This document shows, one piece after another, positions 1-54,823 of a DNA stretch of 64,000 nucleotides (its first letter is position 1; each line of letters opens with the position of its first letter). A program made the translations under genes and the position numbers. Source of the stretch: Escherichia coli (GTDB lineage: Bacteria; Pseudomonadota; Gammaproteobacteria; Enterobacterales; Enterobacteriaceae). The stretch lies in assembly GCF_036507355.1 (NCBI RefSeq), contig NZ_AP027877.1; one strand, 5' to 3'. Under the pieces are notes generated by a model. The model worked only from the letters and a program-made list of their open reading frames with translations. It did no database searches and was not told the origin of the DNA.

Positions 1-2411
1 TTATCTTTCAGCATCAGCCCCCATTGGCACTGAGTCAGCGCCCGGAGAAATAGTCTGACTAAAATATCATCACTACGTTTGCTTCCGACTTTTAGTTTCA
101 TATCAGAAAACACCGTCCGGCAATAGAGAAAATCACACCAGTCATCCCAGTCAGCCAGGGTCTTCAGTGTATGCGTTTGCCGCCAGTCGTCGAAAAGGGA
201 GCGTTGCTGCAGAGCCTCTTCCATATTATCCCACGGGCGGGAAAACATCAGTAGATGCCCTTCATTCATGGCGGGCCGTACGGGCTGGCGTTTGAAATCG
301 AATTCCAGATTAAGACGGATATCCTGTTCCCGGGATACCAGATCGCTTTCCGAGAGCCACATCTCACGCGTTGATATCAACGTACTTCGGGATAACGTCT
401 GACCGGGTAAACGATTAAGGTAAAGATCTACCATATAGTCGTTATAGTCACTGCGTGGAATATCGGCAGGAGGTTTGACGCCAGCCCTGGCATGAACAAC
501 AGGTTTTCCCTGAATCGCTTTATAGGTTAACTGCCCCCGGGTTTTCATGGCGATAAGCTGGCTGACCTCATGCTTACATGTCAACATTGATGAACCCGGA
601 TCAACAATATCGCACAGCGACTGGAAGCGGGAAGACAGTGGACCGCTCATGTTTATCTTGTCAAGTGGGCAATTTGTCAAAAAACCATCGGTTGTGACGC
701 TGACAACCGATGAATCAGAAGGCAAAGCATTCATGAGTTCCCCGACAACGGCGCGGATAAATCCCGTCACATGCGCAGCAAAGAATGGCTGAGTAACCGA
801 TGATGGTGGGAGGGATCTGTTTAATCCACGGGCAGTATCAAAGGCGGTTTTGGCGCGAAGGCCCTGAGCAAGTTTGCCATAAAGCGAGTTGCCAATTTCT
901 TTCCAGAATTTCTCCTCCAAAGAACCCTTAATATGGCGATTACGGTTCTCACGGACCTGTTGAACAAAGGGAAGAAACACCGATGTTGATTCGCTGTTAT
1001 GTGGGGAGGTGTCACAGATCCAGGGGACGATGATCCCATTATGGATCGTCATCTCTGCCCCGAGCGACAGAGCAAGTTCGATTTCAGGTGCCGTTGCCCA
1101 TGATTCGCCACTTAATGGAAAGAATAACCCATATTGATCGGTCCGAACCGGCAGGCTGGGATAGGGAACTGATTCCGGGAACCGAAATGTGACAAGCGCA
1201 AATCCCATCACATGCCCACAGTAATCGTCCGGATTTTTACTGAGGCGGATGTTTCCGTAATCGGGTATGAGGATATCTAATAGCCCGGTGGTATACGCTC
1301 CAGCCAGATCGTAGTCATACCAGTGATCAGACGGTGTAACCCCCATCATAAAACACTCATTGCGTCCGCCGTGGTAACAGTTGATCGGGAACGTTTCAAA
1401 CAACTCTCTTGAAGGAACACTGGCGGGGTTTTTAATCGTCCGGAATGCCTGTTTCTCCGTGAGCCAGAGTTCACGGGTTTTAATGTGTGTCCCAAGGCAG
1501 ACTTCAGGAGACATATTGTTTTCTTTAAGTGTTTTGGTGAACCGTGAAACTGCCATCGCCCCGATGGTGGCGGGGACACGATCAATCATCAGCTCCCGGG
1601 CGCAAAAATTGCGAACCTGTAAAGCATAACGAACCGCAATCTCGGCATCCCGCAGAGCATAGGCTTCAAACCCTGCTCTGTCGCCCAGAAGATATTCACG
1701 CATATTGGTTATGGAATAAGGTGCAGGAATGGTGAGTTTGGGAAGACCCAGTAATTCACCACATTCAGCCAGACCCATACCCCCGGGAGTGATAAGCAGT
1801 GTATCGATGAAAGCTACGTTACTGCAACGCGGAGGGGAAGTTCGTTTGTCAAACATTATCTGTTCAGTCTTTACGCGACGTTCCTGCTGTTCATCAAAAT
1901 CGATACCGTAACGATTTTTGAAGCTGCTGACAGTACCGCGTATTCCTTTCAGAAGAATTTTGTAGTCTGACCAGAAATTGGCAAAGGAGGCGATATCCGC
2001 ACGAATGAAATGCGCATATATATTAATAATACCGGGCCATTTTGTAATCACACCCGTTTCAAGAAGCGGTGTAATCGTTTGACAGAGAAATTCCTTAAAA
2101 GACAGTCGGGATTTTTTCTGTGAGTCAGGTGGATAGATAATGTTCGATATACCAGTGTTATCGGGTAAGACGACATAACTCTGATATGACAGAATATCAT
2201 TCTGTTGTGTTTCAGGATTGAAAACATATTCGGTATCAAAACCGATATGGAGTGTCAGGTCACTTGAAATAACAGATACTTTTTTTGATGCAGGTGGTAT
2301 CACAGGATAATCATCAAGCGTTTTAGGTCTTTTAAGATTGAGCGCTGGCTCTGAAGTCACGGACTGATACCCCGAGGCGGCAGCGAGGATATCCTGCAAA
2401 TTATGGCTCAT
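1..2411 (-). CDS. Family-B DNA polymerase, piPolB-like (primer-independent PolB); C-terminal part truncated by the window edge
   Basis: Hand translation of the minus strand from ATG at 2411 (MSHNLQDIL...) is open to position 1, about 803 codons. Contains GFDTEYVF (ExoI-like), YDYDLAGAYTTG (motif A-like), KEIGNSLYGKLAQG (motif B), VVSVTTDGF (motif C-like) and AMKTRGQLTY (KTRG). Absent from the ORF track because it has no stop in the window. Confidence 0.8.
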   Translation of the reverse strand, partial: MSHNLQDILAAASGYQSVTSEPALNLKRPKTLDDYPVIPPASKKVSVISSDLTLHIGFDTEYVFNPETQQNDILSYQSYVVLPDNTGISNIIYPPDSQKKSRLSFKEFLCQTITPLLETGVITKWPGIINIYAHFIRADIASFANFWSDYKILLKGIRGTVSSFKNRYGIDFDEQQERRVKTEQIMFDKRTSPPRCSNVAFIDTLLITPGGMGLAECGELLGLPKLTIPAPYSITNMREYLLGDRAGFEAYALRDAEIAVRYALQVRNFCARELMIDRVPATIGAMAVSRFTKTLKENNMSPEVCLGTHIKTRELWLTEKQAFRTIKNPASVPSRELFETFPINCYHGGRNECFMMGVTPSDHWYDYDLAGAYTTGLLDILIPDYGNIRLSKNPDDYCGHVMGFALVTFRFPESVPYPSLPVRTDQYGLFFPLSGESWATAPEIELALSLGAEMTIHNGIIVPWICDTSPHNSESTSVFLPFVQQVRENRNRHIKGSLEEKFWKEIGNSLYGKLAQGLRAKTAFDTARGLNRSLPPSSVTQPFFAAHVTGFIRAVVGELMNALPSDSSVVSVTTDGFLTNCPLDKINMSGPLSSRFQSLCDIVDPGSSMLTCKHEVSQLIAMKTRGQLTYKAIQGKPVVHARAGVKPPADIPRSDYNDYMVDLYLNRLPGQTLSRSTLISTREMWLSESDLVSREQDIRLNLEFDFKRQPVRPAMNEGHLLMFSRPWDNMEEALQQRSLFDDWRQTHTLKTLADWDDWCDFLYCRTVFSDMKLKVGSKRSDDILVRLFLRALTQCQWGLMLKD

Positions 2412-2457
2412 AGTTAACTCCGAAAAAATGCCGGGAGCTGTGTCCCGGCATAAAGAA

Positions 2458-3096
2458 TCAAGATTTAATAACATTTACTACAGATTTGAAAATATCGGTT
2501 TTGCGTGATTCATCATCTACATGGATAAAGGAAACGAGTTTCCTGCCTGCTTTAATCAGGATACCGCGTTGCGTCTTTTCCACAGACGGGGTAACGTGTG
2601 CAGATAACAGACAATGTTCATGTAAATGAAGAAACTTTTTTGAGGCGTAGCCGCCATGTAATCGGGCTTGAATGTCAAGATACATATCATCAAGAGAACC
2701 GGGTTCTCCTGATTCACTCAATACCGGATAACCCTTCTTATCAAAGAGGTTAAGGATAGATTTACTATCATGTTCGAACAGGGTAACACCGTAAATGTAT
2801 TTCATTCGAAAGGTGAGGGAATCGGTGGTGTAGACCTCCTCCTGACGATTGAAATTTTTGAGACGCCTGGCTAATTCATTAAAAACAGCACGAGCAGTAG
2901 CCGTGTCCTGCAGGGTGTAGGTATAAAGTACGAAGCCATCTGTGCCGATGAGCTTTACTAAGTTGTCCATAATCGTGATAGCGAGAACTAATGCAAAGGA
3001 TAGATATTTTTCATCGTTGTCTACAGCTGTGTTTGCTGCTTCAGGAAGAATGTTCAGTGCATTATTAGCATTATTTGCTGTGTTCTTAGTAACCAT
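2458..3096 (-). CDS. Hypothetical protein, 212 aa, between the Xis-like gene and piPolB
   Basis: ORF track; start overlaps the stop of the upstream Xis-like gene by 11 nt; same strand as piPolB; no recognisable motif. Confidence 0.55.
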   Translation of the reverse strand: MVTKNTANNANNALNILPEAANTAVDNDEKYLSFALVLAITIMDNLVKLIGTDGFVLYTYTLQDTATARAVFNELARRLKNFNRQEEVYTTDSLTFRMKYIYGVTLFEHDSKSILNLFDKKGYPVLSESGEPGSLDDMYLDIQARLHGGYASKKFLHLHEHCLLSAHVTPSVEKTQRGILIKAGRKLVSFIHVDDESRKTDIFKSVVNVIKS

Positions 3097-3286
3097 TTAT
3101 ATCACCTTTAAGTTTGTTTTGACGATGTGCATTTTCCCACTCAACAATATCATCAAGAGAGAATCGTATAGCCCGCCCAATTCTGATGAAGGGCGGGAGT
3201 TTTCCGGGGTTGCGCGATATATCTGACGCAACCGTGGATGCAGAAAGATTAAATCTTTCTGCGAACTGCTTAATGGTTAAATACAT
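3086..3286 (-). CDS. AlpA/Xis-like helix-turn-helix excisionase or regulator, 66 aa
   Basis: Small basic protein MYLTIKQFAERF...RIGRAIRFSLDDIVEW typical of AlpA/Xis-family HTH proteins; sits immediately downstream of the integrase on the same strand. Confidence 0.6.
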   Translation of the reverse strand: MYLTIKQFAERFNLSASTVASDISRNPGKLPPFIRIGRAIRFSLDDIVEWENAHRQNKLKGDINGY

Positions 3287-3436
3287 AAACCTCCGGTTTC
3301 AGAGAATAAGAAGCCACGCGGATTTAATATCAATCCACATTCTGTGATGACTTAATGCAGGGCCCTGCAGAAGCATGCAATGACAATACCGTCCTTAAAC
3401 GAGTGTTGCATCAATCACGAATCACAGATCATAGGT

Positions 3437-4564
3437 TCATTTTGTGTCATAACTTTCTATGACCTGAGAAACCACTGCGTGTGATGTCGCTGCATTGTGA
3501 AAAGCGTAGCGACGGGTCGCCGTGAGTGAATGGTGATTTAGCAGATGGGAAGCGATTGCAATATCCCCGGTCGCCTGTAGTACCCGGGTGGCAAAGGTAC
3601 GGCGCAGGTCATGCATCCGCAGGTTATCAATGTTGGCATCCCGACAAATACGGGCAAAGGTTGCACGCGGATATGCCAGAGGGCGGGCATTGTCGGTTAG
3701 TTGTGGAAAAATGTAAGTTTTGCTGAGCATCAGGTCCTGCTGGCACTGGACAACTGCAATGGCTGGAAGTGCAAGTGGGCAGGTGAAAGGGTGTCCGGAC
3801 TTTGTATCAGGCAGTATGAGTTGATGCATATCCGGGTGCCAGTACTCCCATTTCAGGGTACATACCTCACCAATACGCATCCCCGTATAAAGAGCAAGCA
3901 ATATAGAATCAGCTGCCGGTGTTTGCAGCGCTGTTGCTGCGTTAATAAAGCGCGGGATTTCTGTCGCTGACAGTGTGCGATAGCGAATGTTATTTTCTTT
4001 CAGATAGCGGACATGTGACATCGGGGAATGTGTGATCCATCCAGCACGTACTGCCAGAGAGCATATTTTGGACAATATTGCGAGGATACGGTTTACTGTT
4101 GACGGACGTAATTTTTCCCGTAAGCCAGCAGCATATTGTTCTAGTTCTCCTGCCGTGATGTCGCGAAGTTGCCGCTTGCCCCAGAACGGGCGAACGTAGA
4201 GGTTGAGTTTTGACAACTCTGACTGAGGACTCTTTTTATACAACTGCAAATCCGGTAGCCACAGGTCATTGATGGCCTGTTCCACAGTGAATCGACGGGA
4301 CTGAACAGCAAGGCGATTTTTATCGGCAAGCAGGTTCATCACATGCTGACGGGCATCCTCAATGCAGAGATGAGGGAATTCACCCAGTGTTTCATATATA
4401 CGTTGATTTTTGATGGTGGCGCGAAAGGCCAGCGTGATCCGTTTTGGATATACCAGTGCACGCAGGTTTTGGCACTGAATATCACGGTATTCCTGACAAC
4501 CCGTGAGGGGATGTGGAAGTTGGTGAATTGATTTGTTGCTGAAACGCAGATCCAGAATAGGCAT
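3437..4564 (-). CDS. Tyrosine recombinase / phage-type integrase, 375 aa
   Basis: C-terminal catalytic signature: TGMRIGEV (Arg), MHDLRRTFATR (HxxR), LLNHHSLTATRRYAFH (catalytic Tyr). Confidence 0.9.
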   Translation of the reverse strand: MPILDLRFSNKSIHQLPHPLTGCQEYRDIQCQNLRALVYPKRITLAFRATIKNQRIYETLGEFPHLCIEDARQHVMNLLADKNRLAVQSRRFTVEQAINDLWLPDLQLYKKSPQSELSKLNLYVRPFWGKRQLRDITAGELEQYAAGLREKLRPSTVNRILAILSKICSLAVRAGWITHSPMSHVRYLKENNIRYRTLSATEIPRFINAATALQTPAADSILLALYTGMRIGEVCTLKWEYWHPDMHQLILPDTKSGHPFTCPLALPAIAVVQCQQDLMLSKTYIFPQLTDNARPLAYPRATFARICRDANIDNLRMHDLRRTFATRVLQATGDIAIASHLLNHHSLTATRRYAFHNAATSHAVVSQVIESYDTK

Positions 4565-7778: not shown

Positions 7779-9302
7779 ATGAACGACAAAATCAGTCAGG
7801 ACACGATCAACAAAGCCCTGTGGGCCGCGTGTGATACGTTCCGTGGCACCATCAGTGCTGATACCTATAAAGACTTTATCCTTACCATGCTGTTCCTCAA
7901 GTACATTTCAGATGTCTGGCAGGATCACTACGACGAATATAAAGTGCAATATGGCGATGCGCCGGAACTGATTGAAGCGATGATGGCGAACGAGCGCTTC
8001 GTGTTGCCGAAAAGCGCCAGTTTCTATGCGTTGTACGAGCGACGTCATGAGCCGGGCAACGGTGAGCGTATCGATCAGGCGCTGCATGCGATTGAAGAAG
8101 CCAACGGCACCAAACTGAAAGATGCCGGGAAAAGTGTCTTCCAGGATATTTCGTTTAACACTGACCGTCTGGGCGAAGAAAAACAGAAGAACACCATCCT
8201 GCGTCAGTTGCTGGAAGACTTTGCCGGTGAAGATCTTAACCTGAAGCCAAGCCGTGTCGGTACGCTGGACGTTATCGGTAATGCTTACGAATATCTGATC
8301 AAAAACTTTGCTGCCAGCGGTGGGCAGAAAGCCGGGGAATTCTATACCCCGCCGGAAGTTTCGGACCTGATTGCTGAACTGCTCGATCCGCAACCGGGTG
8401 ATACCATCTGCGATCCGGCCTGTGGTTCGGGTTCATTGTTGATGAAGTGTGGGCGTAAAATTGTCTCCGGGCATGATAGTCGTAACTATGCATTGTTCGG
8501 TCAGGAAGCGATCGGTTCTACGTGGTCGCTGGCGAAAATGAATATGTTCCTGCACGGGGAAGACAACCATAAAATCGAGTGGGGCGATACCATTCGTAAC
8601 CCGAAGCTGCTCGATAAAAATGGCGACCTGATGCTGTTTGATATCGTGACCGCTAACCCACCGTTCAGCCTCGATAAGTGGGGCCATGACGAGGCCGAGA
8701 ACGATAAGTTTGGCCGTTTTCGTCGCGGTGTACCGCCGAAGACTAAAGGAGATTACGCTTTTATCTCGCATATGATCGAAACCCTGAAACCGGGAACTGG
8801 CCGTATGGGCGTAGTTGTGCCACACGGTGTGCTTTTCCGTGGCTCCAGCGAAGGTAAAATTCGCCAGAAACTGATCGACGAAAATTTGCTGGATGCGGTA
8901 ATTGGTCTGCCGGAAAAACTGTTCTACGGTACGGGGATTCCGGCTGCGATTCTGATTTTTAAAAAGCAGAAAGTTGATGACAAGGTGCTGTTTATCGATG
9001 CCAGCCGTGAATTCAAGGCAGGTAAAAACCAGAACCAGCTTAGCGAAGAAAACATTAAGAAAATCGTCAAGACCTACCGTGATGGCGATAACGTCGAGAA
9101 ATACGCCTATCTTGCCAGCCTGAAGGAAATTCAGGACAACGACTATAATCTCAATATCCCGCGCTATGTCGATACCTTTGAAGAAGAGGATGAGATTGAC
9201 CTGCTGGCGGTGCGAGCAGAACGCGAGCAACTGAAGGCGGAATTGGCGAAGCTGGAAACGGAGATGGCTGGATATTTGAAGGAGTTGGGTTATGGCTCGT
9301 GA
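7779..9302 (+). CDS. hsdM: Type I restriction-modification system, DNA methyltransferase subunit M
   Basis: 507 aa; N6-adenine MTase motifs including DIVTANPPF and the AdoMet-binding region DPACGSGSLL. Confidence 0.95.
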   Translation: MNDKISQDTINKALWAACDTFRGTISADTYKDFILTMLFLKYISDVWQDHYDEYKVQYGDAPELIEAMMANERFVLPKSASFYALYERRHEPGNGERIDQALHAIEEANGTKLKDAGKSVFQDISFNTDRLGEEKQKNTILRQLLEDFAGEDLNLKPSRVGTLDVIGNAYEYLIKNFAASGGQKAGEFYTPPEVSDLIAELLDPQPGDTICDPACGSGSLLMKCGRKIVSGHDSRNYALFGQEAIGSTWSLAKMNMFLHGEDNHKIEWGDTIRNPKLLDKNGDLMLFDIVTANPPFSLDKWGHDEAENDKFGRFRRGVPPKTKGDYAFISHMIETLKPGTGRMGVVVPHGVLFRGSSEGKIRQKLIDENLLDAVIGLPEKLFYGTGIPAAILIFKKQKVDDKVLFIDASREFKAGKNQNQLSEENIKKIVKTYRDGDNVEKYAYLASLKEIQDNDYNLNIPRYVDTFEEEDEIDLLAVRAEREQLKAELAKLETEMAGYLKELGYGS

Positions 9303-10566
9303 TTCGCTTTACCCAGTGAGCGTTAAAGCTGGAAAACCGATCCTTGGAATGCTACCTACAGGATGGCAAAAGTTATCATTAGAAAAGTGCTTAAATATAG
9401 AGGCAAGAAAGGCATATATACAAGATAATCAAGAGTATGACTTAGTTACAGTAAAGCGCTCCAGAGGTGGCGTAATAAGACGTGAGCATCTTAAAGGAAA
9501 AGATATCTCCGTAAAAAGTCAATTCTATATTAAAGAAGGCGACTTTCTCATATCAAAACGACAAATTGTGCACGGTGCTTGCGGTCTTGTACCTAAAGAA
9601 CTTTCTGGCTCAATTGTATCGAATGAATATTGTGTGCTTACAGGGAAGTCCGGTTTTTATCTTCCTTATATGGAATTTCTATCGGAGTCTCTATATTTCC
9701 AGCAAACCTGCTTCCACTCTAGCATTGGTGTGCACATAGAGAAAATGATTTTTAAGTTAGATAGTTGGTTTAAGTGGCCATTTAATATCCCCCCACTGTC
9801 TGAACAAAAGAGAATCGTTAAAATCCTGTCAACCTGGGATAAGGCGATTTCGGTGACGGAAAAGCTTCTCACCAACAGTCAGCAGCAGAAAAAAGCCCTG
9901 ATGCAGCAATTGCTTACCGGGAAAAAACGCTTGCTGGATGAGAGGGGGGTGAGGTTTAGTGGGGAGTGGAAGAGAGTAAAACTGGGTGCGATAGCCGATA
10001 TGAACAGTGGAGGTACTCCGAAATCAACGGTTGAAGAGTATTATGGCGGGAATATCCCATGGGTATCTATTTCTGATATGACATCTAATGGAAAGTGGAT
10101 TGCTACAACTGAAAAATATCTGACTGAATTAGGATTGAACAGTTCATCCGCAAGAATATATCCAAAAAACTCGGTTCTTTATGCTATGTATGCTTCTATA
10201 GGTGAATGCAGCATTGCTGCTGTAAATTTAACATCTTCGCAGGCAATCTTGGGTATTAGACCAAAAGATTGTTTAAATTATGAGTTTTTATATTTCTATC
10301 TTACATCATTAAAAGAAAAAATAAAACTGCAAGGCCAGCAAGGTACACAGTCCAACCTAAACGCCGGAATGGTTAAAGAGTTTGAACTAGACTTACCCAG
10401 TATAAGAGAACAACAAAAAATCGCCGCCGTCCTGTCCGTCGCCGATGCCGAAATCTCCACGCTGGAGAAAAAACTCGCCTGCCTGAGAGATGAGAAAAAA
10501 GCCCTGATGCAACAGCTACTGACTGGCAAACGTCGTGTTAAGGTCGATGAGGCGGTTGCCGAATGA
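9292..10566 (+). CDS. hsdS: Type I restriction-modification system, specificity subunit S
   Basis: 424 aa; two AT-rich target-recognition domains separated by the repeated conserved segment KKALMQQLLTGKKRL / KKALMQQLLTGKRRV; start overlaps the hsdM stop by 11 nt. Confidence 0.95.
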   Translation: MARDSLYPVSVKAGKPILGMLPTGWQKLSLEKCLNIEARKAYIQDNQEYDLVTVKRSRGGVIRREHLKGKDISVKSQFYIKEGDFLISKRQIVHGACGLVPKELSGSIVSNEYCVLTGKSGFYLPYMEFLSESLYFQQTCFHSSIGVHIEKMIFKLDSWFKWPFNIPPLSEQKRIVKILSTWDKAISVTEKLLTNSQQQKKALMQQLLTGKKRLLDERGVRFSGEWKRVKLGAIADMNSGGTPKSTVEEYYGGNIPWVSISDMTSNGKWIATTEKYLTELGLNSSSARIYPKNSVLYAMYASIGECSIAAVNLTSSQAILGIRPKDCLNYEFLYFYLTSLKEKIKLQGQQGTQSNLNAGMVKEFELDLPSIREQQKIAAVLSVADAEISTLEKKLACLRDEKKALMQQLLTGKRRVKVDEAVAE

Positions 10567-11295: not shown

Positions 11296-14200
11296 ATGAT
11301 GAACCAGACGTACACGCCTAAATTCCAGGAAGAATACAGCGCCAAAATTCCGGCACTGACGTTACTGACCAGCCTCGGCTGGACGTTTTTATCTCCGAAA
11401 CAGATTATGGATTACCGGGGCTATAAACAGGATGAGGTGGTGCTGCGTCCGGTTCTGCGTGAAGAGCTGTCGAAGCGTTCCTTTATGGCGGGTGGCAAAA
11501 CCTGCCAGTTATCGGAAAAAGCACTGGATAACCTGATATCACAGGTCTGTTCTCCGGCGCTGAATGAAGGGCTGCTCAAAGCCAATGAACGGATGTATAA
11601 CCATCTGCTCTACGGTATCGCCGTCACGGAGTTTGTCGATGGCAAGAAGGTGAACCCCACCATTGCGCTGATCGACTGGGAACATCCGGAAAGTAACCAG
11701 TTCCATTTTACCGAAGAATTTACGGTATTGCGGTCAGGCGGTGTCGAAACCCGCAGGCCGGATATTGTGTGTTTTGTGAATGGTATCCCGCTGGCCGTCA
11801 TTGAAGCGAAAAGCCCGGCGGGTCACGGCAAGAAAGGGCCAACCATTGACGAAGGGATATCCCAGAGTATCCGCAATCAGCTCAACGACGAAATCCCGCA
11901 GCTGTTTGCTTACAGCCAGATATTACTGTCGATTAACGGGCATGACGGGCGCTACGGTACCTGTCATACACCAATGAAATTCTGGGCGGCATGGCGCGAA
12001 GAAGATATTACTTACGCGCAGATGTATGCGCTGCGCAACCATAAGTTATCGACTGAACAAATTCATGCGTTGTTTGATGATCGTCCTTCAGTCGATCTCA
12101 AATGGTATCAACAGTTAATCGATGGGGGGGAACTGGCAGTCAGCGGGCAGGATAAGCTGCTCATCAGTCTGCTTTCACCGGAACGTCTGCTGGAGATGAC
12201 CCGCTTCTTCACCCTGTTTGATAAAAAAACCGGAAAAATTGTTGCCCGCTATCAGCAGGTGTTCGGTATTAAAAGACTGCTGGAACGCATCAGTACCCGC
12301 AGACCAGACGGGGGCAGGGAAGGTGGGGTGATCTGGCATACCACGGGGTCAGGTAAATCTTACACCATGGTATTCCTCAGCAAGGCGCTGATTCTTCATG
12401 ACAGCCTGAAGCAGTGTCGTATTGTGGTGGTGACGGACCGCGTGGACCTTGAAGGGCAGCTCAGCGGCACTTTTGTCTCTGGTGGCGAACTGGCAGGGAA
12501 GGATGATAAGGCCAAAGCGATGGCAACCTCAGGTCAGAAGCTGGCACAGCAGATTGGCTCTGGTAAAGAACGTATAATCTTTACCCTTATCCAGAAATTT
12601 AACTCAGCGACAAAATTGCCTGAATGCGTCAACACCAGCCCCGACATCATCGTTCTGATTGATGAAGGACACCGTAGCCAGGGTGGTGAGAACCATGTGC
12701 GAATGAAACTGGCACTGCCGAACGCCGCCTTTGTGGCATTTACTGGTACGCCATTGCTAAAAGAAGATAAGACCACCAATAAATTCGGGCCGATTGTCCA
12801 CGCTTATACCATGCAGCGAGCGGTAGAAGATAAAGCCGTTACACCTTTGCTGTATGAAGAACGTATTCCCGACCTTGAGGTTAACGATCGGGCAATAGAT
12901 GCCTGGTTTGATCGTATTACCGATGGGTTAAGCGAAGCGCAAAAAGCCGACCTTAAGCGTAAATATGCCCGTAAAGGTGAGGTTTATAGTGCAGATGATC
13001 GCATCCGTCTGATCGCACTCGATATCGCCACGCACTTCTCGAAGAATATTGATGAGGGGCTGAAAGGCCAGCTTGCCTGCGACAGCAAGATTTCCGCCAT
13101 CAAATATAAAAAGTATCTTGATGAAGCCGGGTTGTTTGAGTCAGCAGTAGTTATCAGCCCGCCGGATACCCGGGAAGGGAATACCGAAGTGGATGAAAGC
13201 AAACTGCCGGAAGTGACGAAATGGTGGAAGGATAATGTCGGCACGCAGGATGAGTCTGTGTATACCCGTAATATCATCAGTCGTTTCGATACCGATGAGA
13301 AGCTCAAATTGCTGATAGTCGTTGATAAACTGCTCACCGGGTTTGATGAGCCGAAGAATACCGTGCTGTATATCGACAAGCCGCTTAAGTCCCACAACCT
13401 TATCCAGGCGATTGCGCGGGTGAACCGACTGCATCCACTAAAAAAGTTCGGTCTGCTGATTGATTATCGCGGTATTCTGGCTGAGCTGGACACGACTATC
13501 GGCAAATATCAGGACCTCGCCTCCCGAACTCAGGGCGGATACGATATCAAAGATATTGACGGGCTGTACAGCGCCATGAGCTCTGAATACAAGCGCCTGC
13601 CGCATCTGTATAACCAGCTGTGGGCCATATTTGCCGGTGTTAAAAACAAAAATGATACTGAGCAGTTACGTGCGGTACTGGTGCCTAAAATGGAAGAACG
13701 TGACGGAGAGATGGTCGATATCCATCAGAAAACCCGTGATGATTTCTTCGAGGCGTTAACGGCCTTTGCCGGATGCCTGAAAGTGGCACTGCAGTCCGCT
13801 ACCTTCTTCACCGACAAGAGCTTTACGGAACAAGACCGAAATCTCTATAAAGAAACCGTAAAACAGATGTCCAGCCTGCGCCAGTGGGCGATGCAGGTAA
13901 GTGGAGAGCAGGTCAATTATGACGACTACGCTGAGCAGGTGAAAAAACTGCTGGATAAGCATGTCACCGGCGTTGAGGTTCGTGAACCGGATGGCGTGTA
14001 TGAAGTCGGTAAAATGGGCAAGAGCGAAAAGCCCGAAGAGTGGGACAACAATAAAACCCGCAATGAAACCGACATCATTAAAACCCGCGTGACGAAGATG
14101 ATTGAGCAGGAATTGCGTGATGACCCGTATGCTCAGGAGGCATTTTCAAAACTCCTGCGTATGGCTATCGAAGAGGCTGAAAAACTGTTTGACCATCCGC

Positions 14201-14583
14201 TGAAACAGTACCTTTTGTTCCGTGAATTTGAAGAACAGGTTGAAGCCCGTAAGCTCAGCGATATCCCGGATGCACTGGCGGTAAACAAGCATGCTCAGGC
14301 GTATTACGGTGTATTTAAAAAAGAGCTACCTGAGGTTTTTGCGGTAAACGACGTTCAGGTGCAGGATAAGTGGACCAAGCTGGCTTTTGAAGTGGACAAC
14401 ATTATCGTCAAAGCGGTGGCAGAAAACTCCCTGAACCCCCAGGACATTGAGAAAGTCGTTAAGACAAGTCTGCTACCACTGCTGTTTACGGCCTGCCGGG
14501 AAATTGGTGCCGGAATGAATCAGGTTAACCGTATTGTGGAAACCATCATCCAGATACTGCGCGTTGGTTTGATGAAATCATGA
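11296..14583 (+). CDS. hsdR: Type I restriction enzyme, restriction (helicase-nuclease) subunit R
   Basis: 1095 aa; Walker A TGSGKSYTM and DEAH-box LIDEGHRSQ; typical HsdR N-terminus. Confidence 0.95.
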   Translation: MMNQTYTPKFQEEYSAKIPALTLLTSLGWTFLSPKQIMDYRGYKQDEVVLRPVLREELSKRSFMAGGKTCQLSEKALDNLISQVCSPALNEGLLKANERMYNHLLYGIAVTEFVDGKKVNPTIALIDWEHPESNQFHFTEEFTVLRSGGVETRRPDIVCFVNGIPLAVIEAKSPAGHGKKGPTIDEGISQSIRNQLNDEIPQLFAYSQILLSINGHDGRYGTCHTPMKFWAAWREEDITYAQMYALRNHKLSTEQIHALFDDRPSVDLKWYQQLIDGGELAVSGQDKLLISLLSPERLLEMTRFFTLFDKKTGKIVARYQQVFGIKRLLERISTRRPDGGREGGVIWHTTGSGKSYTMVFLSKALILHDSLKQCRIVVVTDRVDLEGQLSGTFVSGGELAGKDDKAKAMATSGQKLAQQIGSGKERIIFTLIQKFNSATKLPECVNTSPDIIVLIDEGHRSQGGENHVRMKLALPNAAFVAFTGTPLLKEDKTTNKFGPIVHAYTMQRAVEDKAVTPLLYEERIPDLEVNDRAIDAWFDRITDGLSEAQKADLKRKYARKGEVYSADDRIRLIALDIATHFSKNIDEGLKGQLACDSKISAIKYKKYLDEAGLFESAVVISPPDTREGNTEVDESKLPEVTKWWKDNVGTQDESVYTRNIISRFDTDEKLKLLIVVDKLLTGFDEPKNTVLYIDKPLKSHNLIQAIARVNRLHPLKKFGLLIDYRGILAELDTTIGKYQDLASRTQGGYDIKDIDGLYSAMSSEYKRLPHLYNQLWAIFAGVKNKNDTEQLRAVLVPKMEERDGEMVDIHQKTRDDFFEALTAFAGCLKVALQSATFFTDKSFTEQDRNLYKETVKQMSSLRQWAMQVSGEQVNYDDYAEQVKKLLDKHVTGVEVREPDGVYEVGKMGKSEKPEEWDNNKTRNETDIIKTRVTKMIEQELRDDPYAQEAFSKLLRMAIEEAEKLFDHPLKQYLLFREFEEQVEARKLSDIPDALAVNKHAQAYYGVFKKELPEVFAVNDVQVQDKWTKLAFEVDNIIVKAVAENSLNPQDIEKVVKTSLLPLLFTACREIGAGMNQVNRIVETIIQILRVGLMKS

Positions 14584-28215: not shown

Positions 28216-31571
<3,356 letters not shown>

Positions 31572-31577
31572 GAGCGG

Positions 31578-32006
31578 TTAATCTCCCGTAAGTGGAACTA
31601 ACAGCACATCGACCTCACTTGAGGCAATCACTCTTTTCGCCGAGCAGGATGCTCGCGAAAAGAAACTGTGATTGTGATTACCGCAAATCACCAAATCGAA
31701 ATGATATTTGCGACAAACTTCCAGAATATGTTCGCTTAACTCACCGTAGGCAATAAACGTCTTGTCAACGGGATACCCCGCATCCTGAATTAACTTATCA
31801 AGAAAGCTTTGCGTTTCTTCCTGCATCACGCTGCGTAAATCTTCAAGCATCGGCGCAGCTAATTGATTGTACATTTCCGGGTCGGAAGCGAGAGTAATTA
31901 AACTGATGTGTCCCTTTACTGGCCTGGCGATAGATACCGCTTTTGCCAGCAGTTGCTGACTTTCCGGTGTAACCGCAACAGCGACAAGAATATTGCTATA
32001 GCTCAT
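31578..32006 (-). CDS. uspC: Universal stress protein C
   Basis: 142 aa Usp-fold protein; synteny. Confidence 0.85.
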   Translation of the reverse strand: MSYSNILVAVAVTPESQQLLAKAVSIARPVKGHISLITLASDPEMYNQLAAPMLEDLRSVMQEETQSFLDKLIQDAGYPVDKTFIAYGELSEHILEVCRKYHFDLVICGNHNHSFFSRASCSAKRVIASSEVDVLLVPLTGD

Positions 32007-32785
32007 AACCTGTTCCTTATTCTGTGAACTTCAGGTGACATTAAAGCTTTACTCCTAATGGAGAAACGACGCAATCCCAACTCAGTCAAACAGGTAAATA
32101 TTAGTCTGATTATTAGTAAAGACAATTAATCAATCACTCTCGGTGATCATATGATTTCAACTGTAATTATAAGAAAAAAATGTACTGATTCCCCGCATTA
32201 AACAAGTGGTTAATATATGCAAAACATTTTATTAACATTAAGTTGATTGTTGCCTTTCTTTGTATTTAATTAGTTTGTTGTGCGGTAAGTGTCTGTTTAA
32301 AAATAGCTTATCTGGTATTGCATGAAAGTGATTATTTATAGCAGATGATTATTTACGGTGAGTTATTTTAACTGTGCGCAACATCCCATTTCGATTATTC
32401 CTGTTTCATTTTTGCTTGCTAGCGTAGCGAAAAACTTTTTAACAGATTGAAATACACACAAAACAAAAGTATGACTTATACATTTATGTTAAGTAATTGA
32501 GTGTTTTGTGTGATCTGCATCACGCATTATTGAAAATCGCAGCCCCCCTCCGTTGTATGTGCGTGTAGTGACGAGTACAGTTGCGTCGATTTAGGAAAAA
32601 TCTTAGATAAGTGTAAAGACCCCCTTCTATTTGTAAGGACTTATTAAACCAAAAAGGTGGCTCTGCTTATTGCAGCTTATCGCAACTATTCTAATGCTAA
32701 TTATTTTTTACCGGGGCTTCCCGGCGACATCACGGGGTGCGGTGAAACCGCATAAAAATAAAGTTGGTTATTCTGGGTGGGAATA

Positions 32786-32989
32786 ATGCATACCTCCGAG
32801 TTGCTGAAACACATTTATGACATCAACTTGTCATATTTACTACTTGCACAGCGTCTGATTGTTCAGGACAAAGCGTCCGCTATGTTTCGTCTCGGCATAA
32901 ATGAAGAAATGGCGACAACATTAGCGGCACTGACTCTTCCGCAAATGGTTAAGCTGGCAGAAACCAATCCCAGGAGATGCCAAAGCTGA
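32786..32989 (+). pseudogene. flhD: flhD truncated after about 62 codons by a deletion junction
   Basis: Matches FlhD from [19 protein letters not shown] through KLAETN, then reads PRRCQS-stop. Confidence 0.8.
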
Positions 32990-33498
32990 CGGAAGATCTC
33001 GTTCCTGGCGTCGTCACGCTCACCACACTTCATAAAGTGCTGCAAAATCTCCTCGATGAAAAAGTACCGATTCGCGATATGCGCACCATTCTCGAAACGC
33101 TGGCGGAACATGCGCCCATCCAAAGCGATCCACATGAATTAACCGCCGTCGTGCGCGTGGCGTTGGGACGGGCGATTACCCAGCAGTGGTTTCCTGGCAA
33201 AGATGAAGTCCATGTTATTGGCCTCGATACACCGCTGGAACGTTTGTTACTACAGGCGCTGCAGGGCGGGGGCGGACTGGAGCCAGGGTTGGCGGATCGT
33301 TTACTGGCGCAAACTCAGGAAGCGCTATCCCGTCAGGAGATGTTGGGTGCGCCGCCAGTATTGTTGGTGAACCACGCGCTGCGACCATTATTGTCTCGCT
33401 TTCTGCGCCGCAGCTTACCGCAGTTAGTGGTGCTGTCGAATCTGGAACTATCTGATAACCGACATATCCGCATGACGGCGACAATTGGCGGTAAATGA
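32971..33498 (+). pseudogene. flhA: 3' fragment of flhA (C-terminal ~173 codons) fused to the flhD remnant
   Basis: [22 protein letters not shown]...RMTATIGGK matches the FlhA C-terminal cytoplasmic domain; the N-terminal ~500 codons are missing. Confidence 0.8.
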
Positions 33499-33890
33499 TG
33501 AGAACCTTATTAGCAATATTATTGTTTCCGCTGCTGGTGCAAGCCGCCGGGGAGGGGATGTGGCAGGCAAGTAGTGTCGGAATTACGCTAAATCATCGCG
33601 GTGAGTCGATGTCGTCTGCGCCTCTTTCTACGCGACAACCTGCTTCAGGATTGATGACGCTGGTAGCGTGGCGTTATCAGCTTATCGGCCCGACACCTGC
33701 AGGACTGCGGGTTCGCTTGTGTTCGCAATCTCGTTGTGTCGAATTAGAGGGGCAGAGCGGAACCACCGTGGCCTTTTCCGGTATAGCGGCAGCAGAACCG
33801 TTGCGCTTTATCTGGGAAGTGCCTGGCGGTGGGCGGTTAATTCCACCGCTAAAGGTACAACGGAATGAAGTGATTGTGAATTATCGCTGA
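33495..33890 (+). CDS. flhE: Flagellar protein FlhE
   Basis: 131 aa with signal peptide; ATGA overlap with the flhA stop. Confidence 0.85.
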   Translation: MMRTLLAILLFPLLVQAAGEGMWQASSVGITLNHRGESMSSAPLSTRQPASGLMTLVAWRYQLIGPTPAGLRVRLCSQSRCVELEGQSGTTVAFSGIAAAEPLRFIWEVPGGGRLIPPLKVQRNEVIVNYR

Positions 33891-34011
33891 AGGACAAATA
33901 AAAATTACGCGCTCGCGAGCATGTTTAATAACTCAGCGAAAAAGGCTCGATGTTTTGTTGCAATTATTTATCAGGAATAGCTTGCAACAAAACATGCCAA
34001 AAAGATGTGAA

Positions 34012-34500
34012 TTATCCTCTTGTCAAAGGGCTTGGATAAAAATCTTCAGAGTTACGGTATAGCTGCAACTGGCGAGTTCGCGTATTGGTCTGTATGATCA
34101 TACATGATAGCCATTCTGATTCAGAATAAGGGTCACTTAAATCCTGAACATCCTCATTTGAAAGGATTAATTCACATTCTTTGTCCCTAAAATCCAGCCA
34201 GGCTCGTTGTGATTTTTTAAGCAAGTTAAGTTGTTCGGTATCAGGTTTTTTTGCACCTGTGCGTGGCACTTGTTCTATATAACGATAAGCTTCACCATAA
34301 GCTTTATTTAATTGCGCATCGACGAGATTGTATTCTTGTCGCAGACATGATTTGATCACGTTAATGTCAGTATCATCATCTGAATTTTTTTGCCAACAAT
34401 CTTTGATGGCTGAAATGTCATGGTCGTTTACTATAACCGTATCTTCTGCGTAAGCCTGGCAAGAGATAATGCCTAATGTTAATACAAGAAATTTAAACAC
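34012..34500 (-). CDS. yecT: DUF1311 / LprI-like periplasmic protein YecT
   Basis: 162 aa; signal peptide; synteny. Confidence 0.7.
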   Translation of the reverse strand: MFKFLVLTLGIISCQAYAEDTVIVNDHDISAIKDCWQKNSDDDTDINVIKSCLRQEYNLVDAQLNKAYGEAYRYIEQVPRTGAKKPDTEQLNLLKKSQRAWLDFRDKECELILSNEDVQDLSDPYSESEWLSCMIIQTNTRTRQLQLYRNSEDFYPSPLTRG

Positions 34501-34621
34501 TGCGGTATTCCTTAAATTGAACCGTTATCGTTTTCCTGGGCCTGGATATTACGCTTCTGGCCTCTAACTCAACAGTGAGAAAACAATGGCATGTCCGTTT
34601 TCAGAATACATTTAGATGGCA

Positions 34622-34657
34622 ATAAAAAAGCCTGATCGGCTAACCCTGATCAGGCTT
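34622..34657 (-). terminator. Rho-independent terminator downstream of argS
   Basis: On the minus strand: gcctgatcagggttagccgatcaggc followed by a T-run. Confidence 0.6.
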
Positions 34658-34676
34658 CACTCTCACGAAAAATCGA

Positions 34677-36410
34677 TTACATACGCTCTACAGTCTCAAT
34701 ACCCAGCGTATCCAGACCCAGCTTCAGCGTCTTCGCCGTCAGTTGTGCCAGTTTCAGACGGCTGTTACGCACTTCTTCGTTTTCTGCGCTGAGGATCGGG
34801 CAGTGCTCGTAGAAGCCAGAGAACAGACCGGCCAGATCGTACAGGTAAGCACACATTACATGCGGCGTGCCTTCACGGGCAACCACGGTGAGGGTTTCTT
34901 CAAACTGCAGCAGGCGAGCTGCCAGTTGCGCTTCACGATCTTCACGGATGATAACCGGAGCTGCAGCCAGTTGCTCTTCGTCAATTTCTGCTTTACGGAA
35001 CACGGACAATACACGCGTGTATGCATACTGCATGTATGGCGCGGTATTACCCTCAAACGCCAGCATGTTGTCCCAGTCGAAGATGTAGTCCGTGGTGCGG
35101 TTTTTGGAGAGATCCGCATATTTCACCGCACCAATACCAACCGCGTTAGCCAGTTTTTCCAGCTCGTCGGCTGGCATATCCGGGTTCTTTTCTGCCACCA
35201 GACGGCGTGCACGTTCCAGGGCTTCATCCAGCAGGTCTGCCAGTTTCACCGTACCGCCCGCGCGGGTTTTGAACGGTTTGCCGTCTTTGCCCAGCATCAT
35301 GCCGAACATGTGGTGTTCCAGCGGTACGGATTCCGGTACATAGCCTGCTTTACGGACGATCGCCCATGCCTGCATCAGGTGTTGATGCTGACGGGAGTCG
35401 ATGTAATACAGCACGCGATCGGCATGCAGTGTTTCATAACGATATTTCGCACAGGCGATATCAGTGGTGGTGTAGAGATAGCCGCCATCTTTCTTCTGAA
35501 TGATAACGCCCATCGGTTCGCCTTCCTTGTTTTTAAACTCATCAAGGAATACGACGGTCGCCCCTTCGCTTTCTACTGCCAGACCTTTGGCTTTGAGATC
35601 CGCCACAATTCCTGGCAGCATTGGGTTGTAGAGGCTTTCGCCCATCACGTCATCACGGGTCAGCGTCACGTTGAGACGATCGTAAGTGATCTGGTTCTGC
35701 GTCATGGTGATGTCGACCAGTTTGCGCCACATCTCGCGGAAATATTCGTCACCGCTTTGCAGTTTTACCACGTAGTTACGTGCACGCTCGGCAAACTCTT
35801 CATCTTCGTCGTAATGCTTTTTCGCATCGCGGTAGAAACCTTCAAGGTCAGCCAGCTCCATTTCACCGGCGTTTTCCTGCTGCTGCTTTTCCAGCCATGC
35901 AATCAGCATACCGAACTGAGTGCCCCAGTCGCCGACGTGGTTTGCGCGAATCACTTTGTGACCGAGGAACTCCAGAGTACGCACTGCTGCGTCACCAATA
36001 ATGGTAGAGCGCAGGTGACCGACGTGCATCTCTTTCGCCACGTTTGGCGCAGAGTAGTCAACCACAATGGTCTGTTTTTCTGGCGTAGCAACACCGAGAC
36101 GATCGGACGCCAGCGCCTGCTGAACATGTTCAGCCAGGAATGCCGGATCAAGGAAAATGTTGATAAAGCCTGGACCGGCGATCTCAACTTTGCTGGCGAT
36201 ACCGTTAAGATCCAGATGAGTCAGCACCTGCTCTGCTAATTGTCGCGGTGCCATACCCAGTTTTTTAGCAACTGCCATCATGCCGTTAGCCTGATAGTCG
36301 CCGAACTGAACTTTTGCTGACTGACGAACCTGCGGTTCGCAATCCGCAGGCGCGCCTGCCGCAATCATGGCCTGACGGACTTTTTCTGAGAGAAGAGCCT
36401 GAATATTCAC
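34677..36410 (-). CDS. argS: Arginine--tRNA ligase
   Basis: 577 aa; class I HIGH signature (HVGHLRS). Confidence 0.95.
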
Positions 36411-37196: not shown

Positions 37197-37952
<756 letters not shown>

Positions 37953-37998
37953 TTTTTACCGTTGCATCATGTCGCCCAATATGATGCTTGCTCGTACC

Positions 37999-38031
37999 AG
38001 GCCCCTGCAATTTCAACAGGGGCCTTTTTTT
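37999..38031 (+). terminator. Rho-independent terminator after cutC
   Basis: aggcccctg caatttcaa caggggcct followed by a T-run. Confidence 0.65.
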
Positions 38032-41943: not shown

Positions 41944-42045
41944 CTGCCTGATGCGCTATGCTTATCAGGCCTACATAGTCCCTGCAATATATTGAATTAG
42001 CAAGGTCTTGTAGGCCGGATAAGGCGTTCACGCCGCATCCGGCAG
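41944..42045. repeat. REP/BIME repetitive extragenic palindromes between torZ and cmoB
   Basis: gcctgatgcg...cttatcaggc and taggccggataaggcg...ccgcatccggca units. Confidence 0.55.
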
Positions 42046-52274: not shown

Positions 52275-53060
52275 TTAGCTGGCCTGCTTTTTCATCATAC
52301 TGATAATAAATAACAGTGCCGCACATAGCACCACCGACGGACCCGCCGGCGTATCGTAAAACGCGGAAAAGGTTAAACCGCCAGTTACTGCCACCATCCC
52401 CACCAAAACAGCGACACCAGCCATCTGTTCCGGCGTACGGGCAAAGCGACGCGCAGTAGCTGCAGGAATAATCAGCAACGAAGTAATAATCAACGCACCG
52501 ACAAATTTCATCGCTACACCAATCGTCAATGCCGTCACCAGCATCAACAACAATTTCACTCGCTGTAATTTCACACCATCAACAAACGCCAGATCCGGGC
52601 TAATCGTCATCGACAGCAAATTGCGCCATTGCCAGAACAAAATAGCCACCACGATGACCACGCCAATCGCAATAGAGATGAGATCTTCTGGCGTCACTGC
52701 CAGCAAATCACCGAACAGGTAAGCCATCAAATCAACACGAATGTTAGACATCAGACTAACGACCACCAGGCCCAGCGACAGGGCACTGTGCGCCATAATT
52801 CCTAATAATGTGTCGATCGCCAGCTGTGGACGTTTCTCCAGCCATACCAGACCGCCCGCCAGCAGCAGCGTAACGGCAATTACCGCATAGAATGGATTCA
52901 CGTCCAGCAACAAACCAAACGCGACGCCAAGTAATGAGGCATGAGCCAGCGTATCACCGAAATAAGACATACGACGCCAGACTACAAACGAACCCAGCGG
53001 ACCCGCGGCACAGGCGAGCATGATCCCGGCTAACCAACCGGGAAATAATAATTCAATCAT
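52275..53060 (-). CDS. znuB: Zinc ABC transporter permease
   Basis: 261 aa membrane protein; synteny. Confidence 0.9.
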
Positions 53061-53812
53061 GAGCGATCATTTCCCCGACGCAAAACAATTCGTCCCTGTA
53101 AATCGTGACGATGATTATGATGATGGCGATAGATACCCAGTTGTTCAGCACCACGAGGACCAAACATTGAAATAAACTCCGGATGCAGGGAAACAACTTC
53201 CGGTGTGCCGGAACAACAAATGTGGTGATTCAGGCACAGCACTTCATCGGTTTTTGCCATCACCAGATGCAGATCGTGAGAAACCATTAAAACGCCACAA
53301 TCCAGTTCACGACGCAGTTGGTCAATAAGGTCATATAACGCCACCTGGCCATTTACATCCACGCCTTGAGTGGGTTCATCCAGCACTAATAATTGCGGGC
53401 GATTTAACAATGCTCGCGCTAACAGTACACGCTGCGTTTCGCCACCAGAGAGCTTTTGCATCGGTGCGTTAATCAGGTGCCCGGCCTGGACACGTTTCAG
53501 TGCAGGCAAAATATCTTCTTTATGTGTACCAGGGCGTAAGCGTAAAAAACGGTTTACGGTCAGTGGCAACGTGGTGTCGAGATACAGCTTCTGCGGTACA
53601 TAGCCGATGCGCAGTTTTCCGTTGCGCTTGATAACCCCTTCATCGGGTGTTACCAGCCCGAGCACTACCCGTACCAGTGTCGACTTACCTGCGCCATTTG
53701 GCCCAAGTAAAGTCAAAATTTTTCCAGGTTTAAGTTCCAGCGACACATCAGAGAGGACGCGGCGTTGGCCAAAAGAAACCGAGACATTTTCCAGGGAAAC
53801 CAGACTTGTCAT
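53057..53812 (-). CDS. znuC: Zinc ABC transporter ATP-binding protein
   Basis: Walker [10 protein letters not shown]; 251 aa. Confidence 0.9.
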
Positions 53813-53838
53813 GTTAATTTTAGTCTTGCAGTAGTCAT

Positions 53839-53858
53839 GAAATGTTATAATATCACAC
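53839..53858. promoter_or_regulatory. Zur box in the divergent znuCB / znuA promoter region
   Basis: Palindromic gaaatgttataatatcacac between znuC and znuA. Confidence 0.5.
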
Positions 53859-53890
53859 TTCTCATATTCATTACGATGATTGGTCGCATT

Positions 53891-54823
53891 ATGTTACATA
53901 AAAAAACGCTTCTTTTCGCAGCATTATCCGCCGCTCTCTGGGAAGGTGCAACACAGGCCGCAGATGCCGCCGTTGTCGCTTCGCTTAAACCCGTTGGGTT
54001 CATCGCTTCTGCCATTGCTGATGGGGTAACAGAAACGGAGGTTTTACTTCCTGACGGCGCTTCAGAACATGATTATTCACTGCGTCCATCGGATGTAAAA
54101 CGCTTACAGAACGCGGACTTAGTCGTTTGGGTTGGCCCGGAGATGGAAGCGTTTATGCAAAAACCGGTAAGCAAATTACCAGAAGCGAAACAGGTAACGA
54201 TTGCGCAGCTAGAAGATGTGAAACCGCTACTAATGAAAAGTATTCACGGCGATGATGATGATCACGACCACGCGGAAAAAAGTGACGAAGATCACCATCA
54301 CGGCGATTTCAACATGCATCTTTGGCTTTCCCCAGAGATAGCGCGGGCTACAGCGGTTGCAATCCATGGAAAATTAGTGGAACTTATGCCGCAAAGTCGA
54401 GCCAAACTTGACGCCAACCTGAAGGATTTTGAGGCACAATTAGCCTCAACCGAAACGCAGGTTGGTAACGAGCTCGCGCCGTTCAAGGGGAAAGGTTATT
54501 TCGTTTTTCACGATGCTTACGGCTATTTCGAAAAACAGTTCGGACTGACACCGCTTGGTCATTTTACCGTTAACCCTGAGATTCAACCTGGCGCGCAGCG
54601 TTTACATGAAATAAGAACACAGTTGGTTGAGCAAAAAGCAACCTGCGTTTTTGCTGAGCCACAGTTCAGGCCAGCGGTCGTTGAGAGCGTCGCACGAGGG
54701 ACATCCGTTCGTATGGGAACGTTGGATCCCCTGGGGACGAATATCAAACTGGGTAAAACAAGCTATTCAGAATTCCTGAGTCAATTAGCCAACCAGTATG
54801 CGAGCTGCCTGAAAGGAGATTAA
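53891..54823 (+). CDS. znuA: Zinc ABC transporter periplasmic binding protein
   Basis: Start at [16 protein letters not shown]; His-rich loop [19 protein letters not shown]. Confidence 0.9.

Follow-up and report, generated by a model that had tools for sequence, protein, structure and literature searches.

The Zur operator between the divergent zinc-uptake genes znuA and znuCB in an Escherichia coli chromosome: boundaries, symmetry, and conservation

Analysis of a 64-kb stretch of DNA (hereafter the window) identified positions 53832-53862, almost certainly, as the Zur operator of the bidirectional znuA/znuCB promoter of E. coli; no observation made here speaks against this. The site is already known, being the K-12 PznuABC Zur operator base for base, and nothing in it is new; the only refinements concern its limits, with a box of 23 bp inside a protected site of 31 bp, and the offset of its structural dyad from its consensus dyad. 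The value of the result is one of correct annotation only: this strain retains an intact site for zinc-responsive control of its high-affinity zinc importer, and the site can be used as a positive control for the motif-based reading of raw sequence. The znu operator is among the best characterised of all metalloregulatory operators, with a footprint, a crystal structure, thermodynamics, and in vivo repression described for it, and the present site makes no open question testable.

Genomic setting

The window derives from an E. coli chromosome; the 401 bp around the site match 5,425 of 5,426 complete genomes at 95 to 99.8% identity, and the local gene set (ruvA, ruvB, znuB, znuC, znuA, mepM, and lpxM) stands in the K-12 order but in reverse orientation. 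The site falls inside the znuC-znuA intergenic gap, 78 bp between divergent start codons (53813-53890), with znuC as the first gene of the leftward znuCB operon. A preliminary description of the sequence had placed the operator between divergent zinc-uptake genes, and the flanking genes proved to be znuCB and znuA (Table 1).

Table 1. Features of the window discussed in the text
Feature	Position	Strand	Basis or remark
Full Zur operator, 31 bp	53832-53862	.	Identical to the Zur-crystallised, footprint-protected duplex
23-bp Zur box, imperfect 11-1-11 palindrome, pseudo-dyad base 53850	53839-53861	.	21/23 consensus; arms 9/11
Extended -10 TGtTATAAT, znuA promoter (putative)	53843-53851	+	Sequence; within operator
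Extended -10-like TGaTATTAT, znuCB promoter (putative)	53847-53855	-	Within operator; promoter assigned from sequence
TTGCAG, possible -35 of PznuA	53826-53831	+	Putative; conserved just left of the box
znuC, zinc ABC transporter ATPase	53057-53812	-	ORF; 100% identical to K-12 ZnuC; RefSeq annotation of matching genomes
znuB, zinc ABC transporter permease	52275-53060	-	ORF; annotation; two substitutions vs K-12 ZnuB
znuA, periplasmic zinc-binding protein	53891-54823	+	ORF from ATG 53891, 310 aa as in K-12
hsdM, type I restriction-modification	7779-9302		Variable island
hsdS, type I restriction-modification	9292-10566		Variable island
hsdR, type I restriction-modification	11296-14583		Variable island
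MicL sRNA	37724-38031	+	Rfam, 373.7 bits; overlaps 3' end of ORF 37206-37952, the K-12 cutC counterpart
ES036/CssrF sRNA	41967-42009	-	Rfam, 40.5 bits, just over gathering score

Identity with the characterised operator

The 20-mer that had been proposed as a Zur operator, gaaatgttataatatcacac, was found by sequence check exactly at 53839-53858. Taken three bases further, to 53861, it agrees with the published 23-bp Zur-box consensus GAAATGTTATANTATAACATTTC at 21 of 23 positions (2 mismatches). This was the single match in the window in a search that allowed up to 3 mismatches, and the same search of 100 dinucleotide-preserving shuffles returned none; the match is far above chance. The structure-based two-dimer motif TGWNAYRWTATAWYRTNWCA, from Gilston et al. 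2014 (PMC4219657), matches exactly at 53838-53857 on the plus strand, which is its sole match in the window at up to 2 mismatches.

The agreement extends to the DNA used in the structural work, since 53832-53862 is identical at 31 of 31 positions to the 31-bp duplex crystallised with Zur (PDB 4MTD/4MTE, confirmed to be E. coli Zur). The oligonucleotide 31mer2bpOH-r, TAGTCATGAAATGTTATAATATCACACTTCTCA (Table S2 of PMC4219657), occurs once in the window, at 53832-53864, of which 53832-53862 is the duplex part. According to the authors, the 31 nucleotides of the duplex are those protected in footprints, and the K-12 operator was crystallised with (Zur2)2, that is, with two Zur dimers (Gilston et al. 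2014; PMC4219657). The crystal two-fold axis, which runs between f-strand bases 15 and 16, maps between 53848 and 53847, and the duplex bases 11 and 12, which were mutated, correspond to window positions 53852 and 53851.

Comparison with the characterised E. coli Zur box, the check that the preliminary description had proposed, was thus positive at the level of the consensus, the motif, the duplex, and the flanking genes alike. With K-12, the window shares the 78-bp divergent gap, the gene order, and the spacing to both start codons; the operator itself shows no difference, which bears out the view of it as an expected, intact regulatory site. The K-12 operator was reportedly footprinted by Patzer and Hantke in 2000 (JBC) and by Outten et al. 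in 2001.

The intergenic gap as a whole is identical to that of K-12 MG1655 but for one SNP, at position 53879 in the znuA leader, 18 bp to the right of the box and outside the Zur operator, where the window has G and MG1655 has T. The same G is present in E. coli O145, strain 88-3493, and E. albertii; since E. albertii and other E. coli agree in this base, T in K-12 seems to be the derived state.

The gammaproteobacterial Zur-box consensus was given as GAAATGTTATA-N-TATAACATTTC (Panina et al. 2003, as quoted in PMC4219657). The window site follows it in 21 of 23 positions and in the same divergent znuA/znuCB context, and departs from it at two positions of the right arm (TATCACACTTC versus TATAACATTTC); the TATCACA right-arm variant is also present in E. 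albertii and in an Enterobacter species.

Fur and Zur are paralogues, and both read AT-rich pseudo-palindromes of about 19 to 23 bp, so that a site of this kind might in principle belong to another Fur-family regulator, as an iron-responsive Fur box. Like the Zur site, a Fur box is an AT-rich pseudo-palindrome that is bound by one or more Fur-family dimers and overlaps a promoter; it differs in being without the central TATA of the Zur box, which Tyr45 reads and which is described as particular to enterobacterial Zur (PMC4219657). The neighbours here and at related loci are zinc genes rather than iron genes, and a search of the full 64 kb for the 19-bp Fur consensus GATAATGATAATCATTATC, with as many as 3 mismatches allowed, found nothing. 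We consider it exceedingly improbable that the site is a Fur box, and that identity was rejected in favour of the Zur operator.

Boundaries and symmetry

The 20-mer is the core of the operator, as had been described, but its limits were too tight: the box ends at 53861, and the protected operator spans 53832-53862. The term palindromic, which had been applied to the 20-mer, likewise fits the full 23-mer and not the shorter sequence. In the 23-mer, the arms GAAATGTTATA and GAAGTGTGATA (the latter being the reverse complement of TATCACACTTC) agree at 9 of 11 positions about base 53850, whereas in the 20-mer the right arm is short by its last 3 bp (ttc), and self-complementarity about its own centre is 6/20.

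A second, inner pseudo-dyad lies between 53847 and 53848, where the repeat search placed arms at 53842-53850 and 53845-53853, and it coincides with the crystal two-fold axis. That search returned this inner 9-nt palindrome only; it missed the outer arms because mismatches interrupt them, and the 9/11 symmetry was computed directly. The skeleton RNNNYRNNRYNNYRNNNY fits 53839-53856 with its dyad at the same inner point, again matching the crystal axis. The skeleton in fact fits four overlapping registers within 53834-53861, with starts at 53834, 53839, 53842, and 53844 (background, 0.0038 per position). Two of these were scored: the 18-mer of the published register (53839-53856) is 12/18 self-complementary, against 6/18 for the mirror register (53844-53861), and the latter was set aside as inferior for Zur binding. 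The true operator is 53832-53862, whose midpoint falls some 3 bp left of that of the 23-bp consensus box, and the structural dyad stands 2.5 bp from the consensus dyad at base 53850.

Promoter elements within the operator

The Zur box overlaps -10-like elements on both strands, between znuC and znuA. An extended -10 site for RNA polymerase within the crystallised duplex was also noted by Gilston et al. (Fig. 1B legend, PMC4219657). A scan of 53700-54000 with simple sigma-70 thresholds gave no -35/-10 pair and no terminator, while a relaxed scan recovered extended -10 elements with poor -35 hexamers; it is these poor hexamers next to extended -10 elements that left the standard scan empty, and the absence of a canonical -35/-10 pair is consistent with promoters that would depend on an extended -10. 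PznuA may have a weak -35 in the TTGCAG that stands a few bases before the left end of the box. This hexamer lies 14 bp from TATAAT and 16 bp from TAATAT, and as TTGCAG or TTGCAT it is kept in Escherichia, Enterobacter, Providencia, and Xenorhabdus, where the adjacent bases diverge.

Since TGtTATAAT on the plus strand and TGaTATTAT on the minus strand overlap at the centre of the site and yield much of its central symmetry, the palindrome might be viewed as a by-product of two back-to-back -10 elements of divergent genes, with no repressor involved. Such an origin has almost nothing to recommend it once the rest of the site is considered. Both the symmetry and the cross-species conservation reach the outer arms (GAAATG ... 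CAyTTC), past the -10 hexamers; the same box precedes unidirectional zinT, TonB-dependent receptor, and cobW-family genes; and Zur was crystallised on exactly this DNA, its binding being weakened by mutations in the site, with a gel shift also published.

Proposed regulation by Zur

For the identical K-12 sequence, zinc-dependent Zur binding and repression have both been demonstrated (PMC4219657; PMC2611976). On PznuABC, zinc-loaded Zur assembles cooperatively into a dimer of dimers, with a Kd-app of 8.2e-18 M^2; each monomer reads RNNNY via Arg65 and Tyr45, and the central A15/A16' (window 53848/53847) are the most important bases for Zur binding (PMC4219657). Both the znuA and the znuCB promoter are active, in opposite directions, and the binding of RNA polymerase is blocked by Zn-Zur (PMC2611976). 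Repression of znuC, as the ratio between wild type and delta-zur, is 6.6-fold, which places the site among the weaker operators of the regulon (PMC4219657). The other E. coli Zur operators (zinT, ykgM/L31p, and pliG) share the RNNNY-based motif and the repressor but serve single unidirectional promoters, whereas the znu site serves two divergent ones; Zur binds zinT and L31p more than 100-fold tighter, and repression is 560- to 980-fold, compared with about 7-fold for znuC (PMC4219657).

Zur binding, its stoichiometry, its zinc dependence, and the approximately 7-fold repression in vivo are thus taken from the literature and not from the window, and the same regulation presumably operates in this particular strain. 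With enough zinc in the cytoplasm, the zinc-loaded form of Zur, a repressor of the Fur family that would be encoded elsewhere on the chromosome, is expected to occupy 53832-53862 as two cooperatively binding dimers, one on either face of the DNA. Each monomer would engage one R-N-N-N-Y element through contacts of Arg65 and Tyr45 to purines, the central TATA being the most important part. As both divergent -10 elements lie inside the operator, one bound complex can occlude both promoters: Zur would cover the two -10 elements and keep RNA polymerase off both at once, and this exclusion would stop production of the high-affinity zinc importer ZnuABC. As zinc becomes scarce, Zur would drop its regulatory zinc and leave the DNA, and both operons would be transcribed.

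Given the four skeleton registers and the 2.5-bp offset of the pseudo-dyad from the structural dyad, alternative Zur registers or further oligomerisation might lead to unequal repression of znuA and znuCB as zinc changes. We regard this as a long shot, the published register being clearly the more symmetrical (12/18 versus 6/18), but if true it would mean that the two halves of a single bidirectional promoter are controlled asymmetrically and by degrees.

The zur gene itself lies outside the window. Among 5,426 complete E. coli genomes, 5,425 contain it with a coverage of at least 80%, and from the species we infer its presence in this strain. An intact but idle site, with zur missing or inactive here and znuABC constitutive, could be entertained for a strain with further uncommon lesions, among them the 14.5-kb flhD-flhA deletion described below. 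The near-universal presence of zur in the species speaks against it, as does the perfect preservation of the operator, which is what continued selection would be expected to produce; we therefore attach hardly any probability to an idle site and retain the reading of a Zur-controlled operator.

Conservation of the site

Within the species, 5,424 of the 5,426 genomes carry the 45-bp core 53828-53872, and about 5,025 records show it at 100% identity; in the one variant examined, only the outermost base of the box is altered (53861, C to T).

Across species, a scan of representative genomes with the pattern GAAATGTTATANTATNACA, which covers the left arm and the core, gave at least 126 boxes at no fewer than 120 loci. 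These loci were retrieved with the box as the query, which makes the conservation of its 17 fixed bases circular, and the independent evidence in this set consists only of where the boxes lie in the genome, how far they are from znuC, and what types of gene adjoin them. At least 31 of the boxes (of at least 126) lie directly upstream of ZnuA or ZnuC homologues, and at 15 or more loci the box occupies a divergent znuA/znuC gap, with diverged flanks in all of them. In at least 13 gammaproteobacterial divergent gaps, from other Enterobacterales and from Vibrionaceae, the box stands about 27 bp (26 to 30 bp) from the znuC start codon; these loci belong to E. albertii, Enterobacter, Providencia, Xenorhabdus, Salinivibrio, Enterovibrio, Photobacterium, and Grimontia. 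For two Alphaproteobacteria among the matches listed, the distance is 58 to 79 bp.

The neighbours of the remaining boxes are dominated, among the matches listed, by families of zinc starvation. The ORFs beside these boxes encode TonB-receptor Plug (at least 33), ZinT (at least 13), and CobW (at least 10) proteins, and the same set includes at least four FUR, two ZnuA, one ZIP, and one GTP cyclohydrolase II members. In many Acinetobacter genomes, the box has on one side a gene for a TonB-dependent receptor (about 700 aa) and on the other a divergent gene of some 255 aa whose product matches both DUF4184 and Zn_dep_PLPC (at least 21 members); this gene is a candidate member of the Zur regulon.

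A separate search result concerned 45 places on E. coli plasmids that carry ATGCAATGTTATAATATCACAC, with 19 to 21 nt in common with the Zur box (for example, 2501-2522 of locus L003 on pCAVP746_1, and 44 others). With a BLAST E-value of 8, IS-rich surroundings, and no adjacent zinc gene, they were rejected; most likely, they represent a chance match multiplied by related plasmids.

Other features of the window

The ZnuA protein of the window differs from that of K-12 by G18E, G98E, and L198F. The first of these, caused by G to A at 53943 in codon 18, puts a charged residue into the signal peptide; it is also the sole difference between 53650-54050 and the closest complete genome, and no complete genome is 100% identical over this interval. 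Exactly this protein has been recorded for E. coli ZnuA, on 5 contigs, and the allele is a rare but natural one.

No tRNA genes were found in the 64-kb window, and two sRNA genes are listed in Table 1.

At 32969 (context, 32777-33890), a junction marks a deletion of 14,512 bp relative to K-12, in which flhD (K-12 position 1978014) is fused to the 3' part of flhA (K-12 position 1963501). The deletion removes the rest of flhD, flhC, motAB, cheAW, tar, tap, cheRBYZ, flhB, and most of flhA, and its gene content predicts a strain that would be nonflagellate and nonmotile. The junction is rare, since only 2 of the 5,426 complete E. coli genomes cover 31000-35000 to 80% or more in one place.

The first 20,000 or so positions of the window form an integrase-associated variable island that adjoins yecA/tyrP. 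Besides the type I restriction-modification genes, it holds genes for an M48 peptidase, a DUF262 protein, a PD-(D/E)XK nuclease, another restriction endonuclease, and a DNA polymerase. The first 25 kb are covered to 80% or more by only 90 complete E. coli genomes; in the closest of them, RM14721 (99.1%), there is an additional SIR2-family gene, which the window lacks.
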